Assembly: GCA_964016885.1 (NCBI GenBank)
Contig: OZ024747.1
Coordinates: 36,084,001 to 36,148,000 of the forward strand
DNA length: 64,000 bases
Source of the DNA: Eledone cirrhosa
Lineage: Eukaryota
Direction: 5' to 3'
Position 1 is the first letter of the stretch; every line of letters starts with the position of its first letter. Below are positions 15,527-57,502 of this stretch, piece after piece. Below the pieces are notes generated by a model. The model was given only the letters and a program-made list of their open reading frames with translations. It was not told the DNA's origin and did not search any database. A program made the translations under genes and the position numbers.

Positions 15527-15591
15527 TTTATTATGCGCATTTCAAAAACAAACATCATCATGCAATAATATTTGTGTGTTCATCAGATAAA
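15527..15591 (-). ncRNA. Type I hammerhead, family D (antisense arm)
   Basis: Reverse complement of 15716-15780. Confidence 0.72.
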
Positions 15592-21544: not shown

Positions 21545-22669
21545 TCTATACATATATATAAAACTGTAGTCGTCTGTGTGTGTGTCCTAATTTTTGAAAA
21601 GTCTATACAAATCCACATTTCTACTCCGATTGACTTCAAACTTGCATTTATATATCCTTGTGGTCTAAAGATATTAACTGCAATTTTTGTTAGGCGCTAG
21701 TTTTCGATCTCCGTCGCGACCTTATAATACCTATCTGTATGTCTGGCTGTCTGCATTACGACATTATGACAAACATTGATGACGTATTATGTTCGCTATT
21801 TTCCGTTCATTGCCAGGGTACGTCTTCACGAACCAAAGTATCGTCTTGCTCTTTTCCTCTGGTTGCAACGTTTATCGAAATAATTACTTCTGCCTTCACA
21901 GATTATTGCTTTTTAGTTTCAAAACATCCCGTTAAGGGTGAAAGCAGCGATTATGTGCTTAAACATTAATCTGTTATTTTAATATAAGCGAGGCAAGCCA
22001 GCCCAGTTGCCACTTCTTGCCAATAAACATTAACCATTCCTCTAACTGTAGACCAACAAACACCAACTAAACGAAGCGTTGACAAGTACGATGGCGAATG
22101 ACTCTTTGAGGTAAGCAGTTTCCTGTCGAGGCGTTACTTCACGCGGGTTTCTTTGCTACACCTTTTCGTAATAATACCGAACAACGTACTGCTGGTCACT
22201 CATCCCTCCAAAAGCCGTACAAATCGGACATGTGCATCGTGCAGATGGATCGGGTGCAAATCTACACCAGGTCTACGCGAGAAATTCGCAAAGGACTGCA
22301 CCGAGAGGGATAGCGGAAAAGAGTAACTTTGTGGAAAGAGTGCGAATGAACTTTTGGGGTAAGTAGCCTACGCCTTACTGCTATTGTACTGGAACCTTGT
22401 GCCAACTTACCCTGTGACTTTCTCTTTCACATTTACTCCAATAGGCCAAAACAGAGGAGTATGACTAGAAGGGGCTCAACAATATTTCTATGAACAATGC
22501 GCGTAGACAGCTAAACTGTACTTTCAACTTCTTAATTTTCTCCAAATAAAACAAGTTTCCTTTCGGTATATTTCGTGAGTTTTTAAGAGGCACTCACAAA
22601 TAAACGTTTCTCATCGGAGGTGCTATTACCAATATTCTAACCCGTGCAACGCCGGGATACACTGCTAGT
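21545..22669 (+). mobile_element. Helitron-like non-autonomous element
   Basis: 5' TCTATACATATATATAAAA followed by (gtct/gt) repeats; 3' hairpin cccgtgcaacgccggg then ~10 nt and CTAG|T (typical Helitron 3' end). Confidence 0.6.
21898..21974 (+). ncRNA. Degenerate family F hammerhead inside the Helitron-like element
   Basis: acagatt..agttt-CAAAACA-tcccgttaagggt-GAAA-gcagcgattatgtgc-TT-aaaca..aatctgt. Confidence 0.4.
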
Positions 22670-22714: not shown

Positions 22715-22794
<80 letters not shown>

Positions 22795-22910
22795 GTATAT
22801 ATATATATAGTAATAATAATAAATGTGAAGACTAAAATCCAAAGAGGGATCGATAAGGATAAATATATATCAAATATATAAGAACCCTAGAGCAAATATT
22901 TATTAAAATA

Positions 22911-22986
22911 ACACATTAAAATTTAAGCAAAGAATCGCTGATTTCACCCTTAATGGATCTTCTGAGCATAAATAAAATCAATATGT
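22911..22986 (-). ncRNA. Degenerate family F hammerhead
   Basis: Minus strand: CAGAAGA-tccattaagggt-GAAA-tcagcgattctttgc-TT-aaatt. Confidence 0.45.
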
Positions 22987-23134
22987 GAACGCAGAAGTAA
23001 ATAGATAATACGTCGTTATGTGGAGTGATGAGGATAAATACACGCAAAGTCAAAACCATATTAATGATATAAATGGAGTCGTAGACTGATATTCTATGTA
23101 GGAAACCGTATGATTCTCGACTTCGGAGTTAAGA

Positions 23135-24431: not shown

Positions 24432-24873
24432 TAGAAATGTAAGCTATCGCCGTATATTGACTAAATAAATTAAATCAATTATTTAGCCTGATAGTATGGT
24501 CAAGAACCCTCAGAGAAACGGAAAAAGATGAGTATTGACGTACATGGGAGTCGAACCCACATCTTTGATTATCCGGACCACTGAGCTACCATTTACACCA
24601 ACACGTCTTTTTCCATTCAAATTAGAAGCTATAAACTTAGCGACTGTAATGTCAAGTAACAATATTTTCGAAACAGCGAGTTGCTCCGGATAACCAAAGA
24701 TGTGGGTTCGAGTCCCATGTACGTCAATACACATCTTTTTCCATTTCTCTGAGGATTCTTAACCCCACTATCAGGCTAAAAAATTTCTTTAATTTCTTTA
24801 GTCAAAATACGGCGATAGCTTACATTTCTAATAATTTGAAACCAACGCGCTGTTTCGAAAATATTCTTACTTG
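24432..24873. mobile_element. Fold-back element containing a tRNA-like A/B-box segment
   Basis: 24432-24577 is inverted relative to 24685-24830. B box ggttcgagtcc at 24705. Minus strand carries tagctcagtgg (24578-24588) and ggttcgactcc. Confidence 0.75.
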
Positions 24874-37599: not shown

Positions 37600-38900
37600 T
37601 GGGAGGCTTGAAATTTAGACAAGGCTTTATGAAGGCAATTAGAAAATAATTCATTTTTTTTTGTTAATTAAGGTCTCATAATTATTAATAATCAACAGGG
37701 TCTCTATTGTAAAAAGCTCGCAGTTACTTGATATACTTGAGTTGCGGTAAATTCCACTAGTCCGAAGTTTCTTCCAAAAAATGGAGTATTTTAAATTCTT
37801 CTCTTTTAAGGACCATATAAGCTGTGATAAGGAAGTAGATGATTTCCTCTTGGAGTTCGAAAATGAACATTTATGGTTCGCAAATCTGGCTTTAAATGTA
37901 GAAGACGTCAATCCTATCTAGTTGTATGTGTTGTAATCAGTTTTTACTGTGCATTTATACACCAAATTACTATATAAACAATTAATTGCAGAGGGCAATC
38001 AATTTTATTTCTACAATTACATTTTGGTTTATTATCTATTTATGTTAACGTTATTATTAAGATTATTATGTTGCTTCGGCGTTAGAATTTTAGTGTTTAA
38101 TTTAGCAATGTGTTGGGCCATATTCATAGTTGTAGAATAAGACAATTTAATGGTGTGTCTTTTAAAAATGGAATGGTATTTATGTTGAGTAGGGAAAGAG
38201 GTATCCAAAGCATTAAAGAATAATTTTGCAATTGGGGTTCTAACTGCTACCGAAGAAGGGGATGGGGTAAACCATATGACTGATTTAGTTCTAGTTCTTT
38301 TCCTCAGTTTGTTTGGCGTACGGGTGTTTAACTTATAATTATTAGAGTTTTGTTTATATATGCCATTATTTTTATCAGGGTTAAAACTTGGATTCTTATT
38401 ATCTACATATTCTATATTTTTCTCATATCCTGCTGTTTTAACGCATTATTGTACTATGCTGCACTATCATCAAATATAGCTTTATTAGCTGATATTCTAT
38501 TAATGCGTTTTTGCACACTATTTACTATAGCTCTTTTTACAGACTTTGGGTGATTGGAATGGTTACTCACATAGTTTAAGTTTTTATTGGGCTTAAGAAA
38601 ATGGAAATAAAATCCAGAGTTTAAGTTAAGCGTAACGTCTAGGAAATTAACTATTTTGGTACCATTTTCTACTTCTAACTTAAGGTATGTAATGTATCAT
38701 TATATTTTGTCTGATGAGGACGTACTGTTGTACTTCTGAAATATGTATAATGAAATTTAATTGATCAAAATAACATCCATTTTATTAATATTTATATTTT
38801 AATATTAATAACTCTGGAAAATATTTAACTGTAGAGTGCTTCCAATCTACTGTAAAACTTATTCTTTGATGTACTCATTGAATCTTGTTTAAATCTTTAA
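37600..38900 (-). mobile_element. Decayed Penelope-like element (RT C-terminus + GIY-YIG) with inverted pLTR at its 5' end
   Basis: Minus strand: VNFLDVTLNLN..KPN..SNHP; CPL..CLYSNLVYKC..IGLTSSTFKARFANHKCSF..LSQLIWSLK. Plus-strand HHR and tail at 38700-38900 end in (TA)n. Confidence 0.8.
38705..38755 (+). ncRNA. Minimal hammerhead, family H
   Basis: ttttgt-CTGATGA-ggacgtac-tgtt-gtacttct-GAAA-tatgta-TA-atgaaa. Confidence 0.65.
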
Positions 38901-39009
38901 TATATATATATATATATATAGTAATAATAATAAATTTGAAGACTAAAATCCAAAGAGGGCTCGATATATCAAATATATTAGAACCGTAGAGCAAATATTT
39001 ATTAAAATA

Positions 39010-39085
39010 ACAGATTAAAGTTTAAGCAAAGGATCGCTGCTTTCACCCTTAACGGGATCTTCTGAAACTAACAAAGTCAATCTGT
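39010..39085 (-). ncRNA. Type I hammerhead, family F (U4A core)
   Basis: Reverse complement of 39274-39349 with 2 substitutions. Confidence 0.68.
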
Positions 39086-39273
39086 AAATGACTTCTTTTA
39101 TACCATAAATGTGGTTCTGTCTTTGCGCGTAATTGTTTTTCATCGCTCCTATTAATGACGTATTATATTCGTTTTTTCCCGTTCTTTGCCAGGGAACGTT
39201 TCCACGAACCAAAGTATCGTCTTCCTGTCTTCCTCCGGTTGCAACGTTTTTTGAAATATCCACTTCTGCGTTT

Positions 39274-39349
39274 ACAGATTGACTCTGTTAGTTTCAGAAG
39301 ATCCCGTTAAGGGTGAAAGCAGCGATTCTTTGCTTAAACTTTAATCTGT
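39274..39349 (+). ncRNA. Type I hammerhead, family F (U4A core, bulged stem I)
   Basis: acagatt-gactctgtt-agttt-CAGAAGA-tccc-gttaa-gggt-GAAA-gca-gcgattctt-tgc-TT-aaact-tt-aatctgt. Confidence 0.7.
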
Positions 39350-39486
39350 TATTTTAATATATATATATATATAAAATAATTTATTGCTAGCATTGTTGAT
39401 ATTGTTGTTAATGTTCTAACTGAATGCCATTACTACTACATATAGTAGCCTGTATATTCTGTGCATGCCTGTATATTATCTTTATT

Positions 39487-44581: not shown

Positions 44582-45240
<659 letters not shown>

Positions 45241-47424: not shown

Positions 47425-48067
47425 GTGTTTTGCAACGGGTCACTTTGTGGCTGAATGAAAAATTAATAAATTAAATAATCAGAGCTATATATCATAAAAA
47501 TTGTCTATAGAATCACCAGATAAAATATATACCATTTCCTCTCCCAATGAGATACACATTTGGCTGTATTGTGATGCGCTTTCTAGCAAAAAAGCCGCCA
47601 GCCGTAAGCAAATAACCACATTCCTTCTAACCTGACCGCTGCTACGTCACGATTCTTAGCCATTTTTGAATGTATTCTTGGCGGAATCACTTGGGAAAAT
47701 GTATTGTCTAAATTTGAGCTAACTTCCTGAAGAGTCCTGTGCTCAAGGTTCTGAAGCTATCGGATATCTTAAAATGCGGACGAAACCATGGTCGAGGTTA
47801 TTAAATGCGTTCAATTTTCTCCTACTTTATTTTACACCTAATTCTGTTTAATTGACTGTATATATCTGGGCGATTACGCTGTCGAAATATTCGATAAATA
47901 TTCTGTCGTAGCCGGTGCGATGGGCTGGTTTCGGTTATTTGTTGGAGATTTCTTCATAGAAGCCTTATTCTTCTAGCTTGGTCTATTCGATTTTTTATAT
48001 GGCTAATTATGCTAATTGGGAGAGGAAATGGTATATATTTTATCTGGTGATTCTATAGACATGTTTT

Positions 48068-48134: not shown

Positions 48135-48168
48135 CACAATAATCAAAGCTATGTTCAAATCCTTTTAT

Positions 48169-48215
48169 TGCTGACAATCGTTTCTTCCAAACTATCGTAT
48201 TAAATCATCGGAACA
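48169..48215 (-). ncRNA. Minimal hammerhead, family K (U4C)
   Basis: Minus strand: tgtt-CCGATGA-tttaatacgatagtttggaa-GAAA-cgattg-TC-agca, then ataaa. Confidence 0.62.
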
Positions 48216-48982
48216 GTAGCAATATTTGTACATATAATTATCCTCCTGAACAATCATATAGATACATGGATATTAATATTGTCAACAACAGTTTCGTATT
48301 TACAGGGTGGAATTAGCTCCCCTTAATATAGATCAAACTCACTTCCGAAAATTAAACCATTAGTAAAATCACTCCACAGCAACCTGATGCCCTGATAGCA
48401 ATATAATAGGACCGGTGTACAATTCATGGCTGTGACTGATTAAAAACATTCACTAAAATAAAACATAGCCAATGTAATGGAAAAGATAGCAATAACATTC
48501 ATACTCTCAGCACATATACATTTGAACATTACAGAAACAACAGTCACACTACATCCAGCTTAAAGCCATAGTTTTAATACAAAAACAGCTTTGCCTGATA
48601 TGCTTATTTCATTTTGATACCTTTCCCTTGCAAACATTTATATATGCCTAATACCATTGCTTGTTTCCTTCCTGTATATGACTAATGCATTTGCACTCTC
48701 TTAACGCTTTCGTATGTACTGTTAGTGTCCTCGTTTTACGAGTAACTTTCTACCTTAATGCCTCTTTAATTGTTATACTATTCCATTATAATCTCTGCCG
48801 CTTGCATTCCACTTTGTACCTTTATAATTTTCAGTATTTAATTTTTAATTATTGCACAATTCTCTTCTAATCTATGTCGCATCCATTCCACCCTGTAAAT
48901 ACGAAACTGTTGTTGACAATATTAATATCCATATGATTATTCAGTTGAATAAGAGGTTAATTATATGTACAAACATTGCTAC

Positions 48983-49029
48983 TGCTCCGATGATTCCAAA
49001 TGATAGTTTGGAAGAAACGATTATCAACA
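48983..49029 (+). ncRNA. Minimal hammerhead, family K (U4C)
   Basis: tgct-CCGATGA-ttccaaa-tgatag-tttggaa-GAAA-cgatta-TC-aaca. Confidence 0.65.
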
Positions 49030-49194
49030 ATAAAATGATTGGAACATAGCTTTCATTATTGTGTAATTTATATTCCGGCCTTGTAAAACAACTCATGTAT
49101 TTACATTGAGGTATTTTTTCGTACTGATAATAAGGTAGTAATAAATTACTGACCTTCCCTGTTTATAGTTGTATACAGTGTATGCATAACTATA

Positions 49195-51040: not shown

Positions 51041-52218
51041 TTGTTCTTGTTCGTACTGCTTTTATTTAACGCATGCTTTGACGAGTGCGTAGTTCAATCG
51101 AAAACAATTTATGCCACATTATGTTTGCTTGTCCAACGCCAGCGAAATATATCATACTAGAAATATGAACATATGGTCGTACCAATACCTCCTAAATAAT
51201 ATTTCGTCCAATTCATGCCGCATGGAAAGAGGCCATCTGCACGGTAATTGTGATCATCGTGACACTGATAATCAATAATACAATTTAAGCAACATTTTCA
51301 CTTCCCAATCACTTTCAGTCCAAACACATAATTCGACTGAAATATACAGATTTCTTTATCACTGAATTCACTTAAAATATTATCCAGATATTGCTTAAAT
51401 TACATCTCCACATGACGAATGTAAATTTTCTACTATGAAATAATCCACGCAAGCAATTTTAGTAATACATAAGGAGGAACACCTCATTTATCGAAATTGC
51501 AGTATTATCCACTTATTAAAATATTTATTTATTTTTATTTGGAATCTTTGACATTCCCATTGATGATATTAGATATAAGTCATTTTGAAAGCATAATTCA
51601 TATATTCCTCCACATTAATATAATTTTAAATGTATATATATAATATCGTAATTTTCTTTTACCGAATTTAGGTGTAGTCCTTAGTGAAGTAAATAAAACT
51701 CTTTGTACTGGGTATGCATCGGTTTGTTTAAAGTGTAAGTTTTTTATGATGATAAATATAGATTTATGTTCATATGTTCTGACTAAAAGAATCCTGATAC
51801 ACTTAAGCAGTTATTGATCCTACACTCAGAGCCATATTTTATTAGGTGGTCTTATTTTATGAAAAGGAGTCGGAATCACGTATCACTACTATTGCACGTA
51901 TAATTCCCATATCTATACTATTCATTCACAAACACAATTGTTCCTAAGCCGCACCCGGATAAACAATGGCGTTTTTGAAACATTACAATACATTTTAAAG
52001 GTTATTAATTCATTTTTGTTACATAATTTAACCAGCACACGAGAGGTTTCAGAATATACTAACAGAATGAACCGGCGTAGCTCGGGATTTACTCAAGGGT
52101 TCTTACATATTTGATATATATTTATCCGTATCGAGCCTCGTGAAATAAATACATTTGTTTATATTTTGTTATTGTGTATGCAAACATATCTGTACAGGAA
52201 TATATATATATATAAATA

Positions 52219-52295
52219 ACAGATTTAAGTTTAAGCAAAGAATCGCTGCTTTCACCCTTAACGGGCTTTTCTGAAACTAAAAAAAATCAATCTGT
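52219..52295 (-). ncRNA. Degenerate family F hammerhead
   Basis: Minus strand: acagatt..agttt-CAGAAAA-gcccgttaagggt-GAAA-gcagcgattctttgc-TT-aaact..aatctgt. Confidence 0.45.
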
Positions 52296-53857
52296 GAACG
52301 CAGAAGTAAATATTTCGAAAAACTTTACACATGATATATATATATATCCACACACACACTATATATATACATATATACATACACACACAGAGAGCGACGT
52401 CATAATGTCGTAATGCAGACAGCCAGACATACAGACAGACATTCTCTGTTTTAGATATTTAGACAAAGATGCTGACGATGTTGTCGATGACGGACGATGA
52501 TGATGGTGAGGAGAAGGAGGTGGAAGAGAATAAGAAGGAAGATGAGAAGGATGATAATGATGCATGAATCTCGGGTTTAGAAATAATGTCCATTAGAGTA
52601 TAAAGACGGAAATAATCCGAGAAATACTAACAGGTCATCCGCGATTAAATCACCATGATAAAAAGATTGCTAATCTGGCCATTGTAAAAACAAACGTATT
52701 ATTGTCAAAAGTAGAAACGACCTAATATATGCCGTTTTAACTACACAGATATGAATATTGAAACTCAAATAAACATATAGAATATAAGAGAAAGTACATT
52801 TCTATAATTCTGTGTAATAATTAACAGAAAATTACACTAAGTAAAACTGAAGTATATGCTAATATTATATACAGTAGAACAAGATGAATTACACCAAGAC
52901 AAAGAACACCGAGACAAAAGAGACCTACTCTTCTGCATAATGCAATCGTCGGTATGAAGAAACATGCCAACGGCACCGTCAGAAAAAACAATAATTTGAC
53001 TCCCAAACAAAATATGTATAGAAATGGCGAAAACAAACTAGAAAGAAATACAACATCTAAAGGAAAGAAACAACTGTAAAAACAAAAATAGATTCAGATG
53101 GCGTACAGTTTACTGTATTGGATATGTCAATACACATGCTGCGCATATTGAATAATATTAATATGGTTTGAGAATACCATGAACTACATGTATGATTGGT
53201 ATATATGATACTTTTTTATAAGGTTTTCAATTGCCTTTTTTATTCTTTCATTGGTATTCATGCTGTTTCTCTTGTGATTATAATTAATTCTGTTTTCACG
53301 TGAAACAACTTATTACTGCGAGAGCAGGAATGTGTTGTCTATACACGTTTTGTTTTCTCCACATTTGATATTCAGCAAATATTTGTCAATTTTTGATTTC
53401 AAAGTATAGTTTATTTCAGTCGTCATAATATATCTTTGTATTTCATCATTAGGAAACGCGAAATTTATCATTTCATATTTCTTTTCGCTTAACTTTCATT
53501 ACGTACTATGAATGCAACGCATATTAGTGGTATTTGTGTAAGTAGTACATGAGATGTGATTGTATTTTTATTTGAATTATCTTCTAAATTTCGATGGAAT
53601 CACTTAATATGGTAATATTTCTTTTCCTATTACCCTCTGTCTGGTTATATATATATTGGTATGTGTTTATAATCATTACCTAATCATCTGTTGGAATTGA
53701 TAGGGTTATGTTATATAGATGTGTGTGTTTGTAATTTGAGTAAAATTTAGGCTGAAATGGACAACATCATTTTGCAACTCTCTTATTCACCAACAGTCTA
53801 TTCATTTCTCTCTCTCTCTTTCTCTCTCTCTCTCTGTCGCACTCTCACTCTCTCTCT

Positions 53858-57199: not shown

Positions 57200-57502
57200 A
57201 TACCTAATTAAGAGTTTCAAAACACGTCCACAGGACGCGAAATAGAATCCTGAAAGGCGGAGGGGGAGTCAATCACGTGATACAGCGGTCAAGAAACAGA
57301 GCTAAGCCTCTTATAACCATGAAAAACATAAAACGGAGGCTTTGATATAAGTACCCCCTCAGCCTCCGTGGTATTTTGTTCAGGGTTATAAGAGGCTTAG
57401 CTCTGTTTCTTGACCGCTGTATCACGTAATTGACTCCCCCTCCGCCTTTTGGGATTCTATTTCGCGTCCTACGGACGTGTTTTGGAACTCTTAATGAGGT
57501 GT

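Follow-up and report, generated by a model that had tools for sequence, protein, structure and literature searches.

A hammerhead-shaped motif with adenine at core position 4 in the terminal repeats of a Hydra-clade Penelope-like retrotransposon

Described hammerheads and the motif of family F

As described for Penelope-like retrotransposons (PLEs) of the Hydra clade, type I hammerheads lie near the 3' end of elements with a C-terminal GIY-YIG domain, which insert at (TA)n (PMC8557442). The Hydra rows in File S2 of that source all carry CUGA (26/26) and G16.2 (26/26), with U10.1.U11.1 in 14/26 and U17 in 10/26, and have a stem III loop of 1–3 nt. Poseidon of Anolis, from a different PLE clade, has a pLTR hammerhead with a canonical core inside which the ORF starts, two downstream reverse-transcription start points and copies with or without a tail of 30–40 bp (Frangieh 2024, PMC11167929). 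According to that report, the Anolis hammerhead requires the element's own protein for cleavage, the insertion template is uncut RNA, and cleavage is dispensable for insertion in vitro. Metazoan PLE hammerheads have been described as cleaving poorly in vitro (Cervera 2014), while the type I hammerheads of Schistosoma Sm-alpha and the animal retrozymes, whose bulged stem I lies opposite loop II, are canonical and fast and belong to short non-coding tandem repeats. Among PLEs the hammerhead is near-universal in some clades, absent from others and dispensable in vitro.

Departures from the hammerhead core are known from nature, and the variants given by Perreault 2011 (PMC3088659) include U4C, U3-A8, A6C and U10.1.U11.1, each a single core deviation among intact helices. 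In that account U4 contacts the A6-N7 phosphate, U4C has lower activity in vitro with the viroid still infectious, U.U is the best-tolerated mismatch at 10.1-11.1, and tertiary contacts are proposed to compensate for core variants; U4A is absent from its main text. Single mutants in the CUGA region of a type III hammerhead are reported to have low activity (Roberts 2023, PMC9901934), and CUU and UUU are given as the least efficient cleavage triplets (PMC8879150). No A4 hammerhead was listed in a literature search covering mostly open-access sources.

The window analysed here, the whole stretch of 64,000 nt, comes from a 3.0-Gb genome and holds five copies of a hammerhead-shaped motif, here called family F. 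The parts of the best-preserved arrangement are as follows.

39274..39349, plus strand: hammerhead-shaped type I motif in the pLTR of family F, young subfamily, identical or nearly so to the ORF-flanking pLTR copies
39274..39282, plus strand: 5' strand of distal stem I, partner 39341-39349, the final two positions possibly open
39283..39289, plus strand: stem I bulge of 7 nt, which differs among subfamilies
39290..39294, plus strand: 5' strand of proximal stem I (AGUUU), partner 39336-39340 (AAACU)
39295..39301, plus strand: core C3-A4-G5-A6-N7-G8-A9 (CAGAAGA), with A4 at 39296 and N7 at 39299
39302..39314, plus strand: U10.1, 3-pair stem II, loop II (G...A) and U11.1 (U-CCC-GUUAA-GGG-U)
39315..39335, plus strand: G12-A14 (GAA), stem III (AGCA/UGCU) capped by a loop of 9 nt, U16.1 and U17
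39335/39336, plus strand: predicted cut after U17, triplet CUU, placed by hammerhead numbering

The letters of the motif support a type I hammerhead fold that is natural and carries A4. The core consensus (C3 U4 G5 A6 N7 G8 A9, G12 A13 A14, A15.1-U16.1, H17) is matched throughout except that U4 is A, and the parts of the full-size type I fold named in the original prediction are present as described, including the closable stem III (AGCA/UGCU), which is non-palindromic. As also predicted, the A4 core escapes the search string CUGANGA. The motif has a hammerhead descriptor score of 12, on a background of 4 matches scoring at least 9 in three shuffles of 94 loci, and with helix I open the three helices around the core pair in 92% of cells, compared to 16–57% for slid controls. 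Several properties had been missed by the prediction, namely membership in a PLE, the U.U mismatch at 10.1-11.1, a stem II of just 3 pairs, the cleavage triplet C16.2-U16.1-U17 and the outcome of RNAfold (z -1.39), in which the hammerhead (-12.3 kcal/mol) is not the lowest-energy structure (-15.1 kcal/mol, a gap of ~3 kcal/mol) and proximal stem I has a pair probability of 0.07.

Compared with the File S2 rows, U10.1.U11.1 and U17 are ordinary Hydra-clade traits because both recur there at the frequencies given above, and the bulged stem I is shared with Hydra-1_cRog (PMC8557442). The differences lie in A4 and C16.2, as opposed to CUGA and G16.2, and in a stem III of 4–5 pairs with a non-palindromic loop of 7–9 nt in place of the 1–3 nt of the clade. 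Like the variants of Perreault 2011, family F combines one core deviation with intact helices, and differs in that its variant is fixed in >20,000 genomic copies. No Rfam match to a hammerhead was returned in the 64-kb window, nor in 10 loci holding canonical Hydra-type motifs, and the blank is thus uninformative about A4. Elsewhere in the window Rfam gave a tRNA match above the gathering score (24536-24607, minus strand), and a long near-perfect inverted repeat lies at 57239-57463 (plus strand).

The host element and its insertions

The motif sits downstream of a 709-codon ORF and also upstream of it, in direct or inverted orientation. In tandem copies the unit measures 3,259 nt, the A4 motif is its sole sense-strand hammerhead string, and the start codon follows the predicted cut by 157 nt, in contrast to the ORF of Poseidon. 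The single ORF encodes a protein of 709 aa (P0001) with a reverse transcriptase (RT) followed at the C-terminus by a GIY-YIG domain (YRDD at 346, YIG at 598), in which RWR occupies the RWK position at 37, followed by DKT at 115, CNCRNRVDC at 564 (CxCX5C), CDLC at 662 and CKH at 690; the CCHH linker (CX2-5CxxC) is absent. The feature set described for the Hydra clade comprises RWK, DKT, the CxCX5C linker, lack of CCHH and a C-terminal CxxC plus CxH (PMC8557442). Family F further matches the clade in its pLTRs, an inverted 5'-truncated copy, an optional tail and (TA)n targets, and its unit exceeds the length of <3 kb that this source gives as 'generally' the case, a soft feature.

Pfam gave no match for two ORFs, and PF01541 is carried by 1/120 homologues among the matches listed. 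P0001 groups with P0002 and P0005, from sister families in the same genome, with a support of 99 (FastTree, 37 rows, computed without a named reference protein). Candidates were confirmed in 0/66 cases in a single-protein metagenome scan and in 0/14 in a viral scan. Among the scored full-length ORF matches 37/63 are stop-free, and the differences shared between old and young ORFs number 10/543, 19/545 and 67/543 at codon positions 1, 2 and 3; from this skew it follows that the source lineage has been under protein-level selection.

The motif is not a free-standing family: it belongs, as the hammerhead, to the pLTR or terminal repeat of a PLE from the Hydra clade. Its copies either terminate a coding unit of 3.26 kb or form truncated inverted pairs, as opposed to the short non-coding tandem hammerhead units of the non-LTR retrozymes. 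With Sm-alpha and the animal retrozymes it shares the type I architecture in which stem I is bulged opposite loop II, here accompanied by an autonomous element, A4, U.U and CUU. Imperfect internal repeats of ~120 nt occur directly 5' of the hammerhead in the family F 3' UTR (L052:6790-7100).

Other PLEs of this genome were encountered alongside family F. A young sister Hydra-type family with 53% protein identity has many near-identical copies (L176-L177, G000:C1:91.47-91.49 Mb; L178-L193), including a head-to-tail array of four units with a period of ~3.54 kb, and a hammerhead with U3-A8, a long stem III and a long loop II. A further PLE family is represented by pieces ~35-49% identical with a U3-A8 core (L049, L062, L068). 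In the window, decayed ORF pieces of a different PLE family (37657-38684, minus strand; 35-48% identical to P0001) adjoin the family F motif, with a CUGAUGA motif beside them at 38711 (plus strand), and position 44687 (minus strand) marks a canonical minimal Hydra-type hammerhead of another high-copy PLE family (CUGAGGA or CUGAAGA, U.U, palindromic CAAUUG, GUU; also L116-L118). Further minimal hammerheads with a canonical core lie at 15586 (minus) and 15721 (plus), which form a palindromic pair, and at 47727 (plus) and 61752 (minus). Hydra-type PLE ORFs with hammerheads are also present in bacterial assemblies from marine samples (L494-L509), probably as host contamination.

The family F copies of the window and their surroundings are listed below.

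39091..39273, plus strand: 5'-truncated upstream pLTR / 3' UTR part
39350..39360, plus strand: short 3' end of the insertion, then (TA)n
39010..39085, minus strand: inverted second copy of the motif, with a 5'-to-5' junction near 39088-39091
38920..39009, minus strand: the inverted copy's long 3' tail, terminating in (TA)n
21775..21986, plus strand: older copy (motif 21898), core decayed to CAAAACA with G5 and G8 lost
22787..22998, minus strand: older copy (motif 22911), CAGAAGA, stems II and III damaged, long tail
52200..52329, minus strand: older copy (motif 52219), core CAGAAAA

The original prediction gave CAGAAGA as the recurrent core and A at position 4 in all five copies; position 4 is indeed A in 5/5, and the full string is kept in just 3/5. 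As a bare 7-mer, CAGAAGA occurs 11 times in the window where 5.6 are expected, a mild enrichment equalled in 3/100 shuffles.

Copies terminate at ~+29 or ~+116 beyond the predicted cut and then run into (TA)n, so that the optional tail measures 87 nt, longer than that of Poseidon; the two elements are alike in having a pLTR hammerhead, two downstream RT start points, copies with and without the tail and an uncut template. In most divergent pairs (38/50) one member ends long and the other short, as is the case for the window copies at 39010 and 39274. None of the full-ORF copies has its 5' end at the cut site (0/30; the nearest are at -5 and +15), 14/30 begin upstream of the 5' cut site, with 12 including the whole motif, and it is common for a template to carry two uncut motifs separated by 3.3 kb. 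Such read-through was considered as proof of a dead ribozyme and rejected: canonical U4 families of the same genome likewise insert beyond their cut site, and insertion past the site is thus not a mark of inactivity.

Position 4 and constraint on the motif

Across the genome an exact 24-mer occurs with A4 in 20,080 places and with U4 in 83. A core-free pattern yielded 14,867 matches, with A4 in 100/100 of the matches listed; copies not selected on the core have A in 73/74 and a gap in one, and ancient copies anchored outside the motif have A in 25/27, G in 2 and U in 0. About half of the U4 loci examined (n = 20) have an intact stem I and are scattered over subfamilies, the remainder being truncated or junctions. 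A search for an ancestral U4 subfamily of large size was negative, a looser U4 pattern giving 160 scattered matches. One candidate, which looked like a U4 sister family sharing the stem II of family F (15 among the first 100 matches listed), was discarded since 15/15 are family F inversion junctions, which fall on the quasi-palindromic core, where the A4 of one arm becomes U. By extrapolation from these 15 (L101-L115, G000:C1), such core junctions may number ~1,300 genome-wide. Contigs from public runs, possibly not independent of this genome, have no letter other than A at position 4. Because A4 is carried by old, young and ancient subfamilies, U4 is scattered and the U4 'sister' consists of junctions, A4 is one inherited state and not, as first proposed, recurrent.

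When the descriptor was applied to related loci of other organisms (n = 94), 69 of them contained sense-strand matches, 87 in all, of which 86 have U4, one has C4 and none has A4 (0/87); the antisense strand of these loci, as a control, gave 11 matches (9 U4, one CAGA-type). C16.2 was seen by eye in none of the 87. The sister families of the same genome (53%-identical and ~42%-identical, U3-A8 core) keep U4. A second hammerhead-like repeat family of this genome, arranged in inverted pairs, has C4 (CCGAUGA or CCGAAGA) in 8/8 copies seen, two of them in the window (48961-49050, plus; 48148-48237, minus) and others in L069, L129, L160 and L167, and a metagenome contig (L429:2168) has a CCGAAGA (C4) match upstream of a Hydra-type ORF.

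Comparison of old and young subfamilies identified 27/258 differences upstream of the motif, 2-3 in the 7-nt bulge, 0/69 in the remaining motif and 2/102 downstream. Taken alone this pair does not make the constraint motif-specific, since the downstream segment is kept as well as the motif (p 0.52), and some of the constraint is thus not peculiar to the hammerhead. Ancient subfamilies were gathered again by means of an anchor lying outside the motif (112 matches, 90 read), and 27/90 copies that kept the proximal stem and core region were used, the other 63 being truncated, junctions or too decayed. Five subfamily majority sequences were built from 12, 5, 28, 30 and 70 copies; part of the ancient set had been chosen on motif positions 42-66, where the majority of the unbiased set is the same.

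Variable sites among the five majority sequences number 0/14 in the core, 2/36 in the stems and 9/22 in the loops and N7, compared to 9/30 upstream and 15/40 downstream (24/70 for the flanks together), and both variable stem sites are weak majorities in the 5-copy group (ancB). Stems and core together differ from the loops with N7, the upstream flank and the downstream flank (p 2e-4, 0.002 and 7e-5), and the core alone differs from the flanks (p 0.008). The core is fixed at each of its 14 sites, G8 and G12 among them, with changes inside the motif confined to N7, the loop interiors and the bulge. The 27 ancient copies have A (17) or U (10) at N7, linked to the type of loop II (p 0.003); the stem I bulge is present, and loop II has as its first base G, or what CpG decay makes of it, and ends in A in 25/27. 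Covariation of the stems, a check named in the original prediction, is absent in 40 copies (score 0.055, 0.056 when shuffled), with two-sided change in 1/19 pairs. The pattern of free N7 and loop interiors beside a fixed core and stems is that expected of a hammerhead under selection, which makes a passive relic unlikely and points to selection for the hammerhead shape in its A4 form.

Catalytic and non-catalytic readings

The sequence evidence inclines us slightly towards a self-cleaving hammerhead of the PLE pLTR that is fixed for A4, likely slow and possibly protein-assisted. Under this proposal the RNA would fold as a type I hammerhead with a contact between the stem I bulge and loop II, and A4 together with the CUU triplet would reduce the rate of cleavage. 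A majority of transcripts would then stay uncut, so that the ORF remains attached to both of the start points for reverse transcription that lie downstream, with a minority cut after U17, trimming read-through tandem transcripts to unit length. A closed stem III on its own would allow the monomer to sever the ORF from these start points, which the weakened core may mostly prevent. In favour of a slow hammerhead count the pLTR context, the presence of A4 in every subfamily examined, the fixed core and stems, the viroid that stays infectious with U4C (PMC3088659), the protein-dependent Anolis hammerhead with its uncut template (PMC11167929) and the C4 of the second hammerhead-like family (8/8 copies seen). 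The zero covariation, the equally kept downstream segment of old and young subfamilies, the low activity of CUGA mutants, the lack of A4 among relatives (0/87), the stem I probability of 0.07 and the lack of 5' ends at the cut site (0/30) count against it.

It is possible, if doubtful, that the motif is catalytically dead and that the junction or the DNA is kept for another role, whether RT-EN binding near the RT start points or as pLTR promoter / 5' UTR. Such a role would accord with the Anolis PLE hammerhead mutants, whose insertion in vitro is reported as undiminished (PMC11167929), with the spread of Naiad elements described as lacking canonical hammerheads (PMC8557442), with the two predicted handicaps of A4 and CUU (PMC9901934, PMC8879150), with the equally kept downstream tail of old and young subfamilies and with the full-ORF copies that start upstream of the 5' cut site (14/30, 12 with the whole motif). 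Against it, the sites free to vary are N7, the insides of the loops and the bulge, the very freedom that working hammerheads have, the core is fixed throughout, and canonical U4 families also insert past the cut site.

A fast, monomer-competent hammerhead of the Schistosoma kind, as originally proposed, in which the contact between bulge and loop II fully compensates for A4, appears improbable. The closed non-palindromic stem III, the bulged stem I and the G...A loop II are all conserved, and tertiary contacts have been proposed to offset core variants (PMC3088659), but rapid cleavage is made less likely by A4, by CUU and by the weak junction: the triplet belongs to the slowest class (PMC8879150), stem II has only 3 pairs on a U.U mismatch, the hammerhead fold lies ~3 kcal/mol above the lowest-energy fold, and templates in which both motifs, 3.3 kb from each other, remain uncut are common, the cut site being read through. 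Very improbable is a founder mutation to A4 that killed the ribozyme and has since been copied passively, the alternative named in the original prediction. In its favour are the single inherited state of A4, its position within a quasi-palindrome where inversion converts U to A and the lack of covariation, but it is largely contradicted by the change of about one third of flank sites among subfamilies, along with N7 and loops, against 0/14 in the core and 2/36 in the stems.

Returning to the slow, self-cleaving hammerhead, the wider proposal drawn from these sequences, which we consider evenly balanced, is of a natural hammerhead that is catalytically active although position 4 is a purine, and that was selected through successive subfamily waves. 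Position 4 might then be tunable (A4 here, C4 in the second family), slowing ribozymes whose stem III is closed and thereby sparing uncut RNA for retrotransposition, and surveys based on CUGA would miss whole high-copy families. A family of >20,000 copies in which the other core bases are kept and A4 is fixed offers a direct test of the role of the hammerhead in PLEs. If the family F motif cleaves, the accepted core consensus would be too narrow and descriptor-based surveys would undercount; if it does not, a hammerhead fold would be selectable without catalysis.
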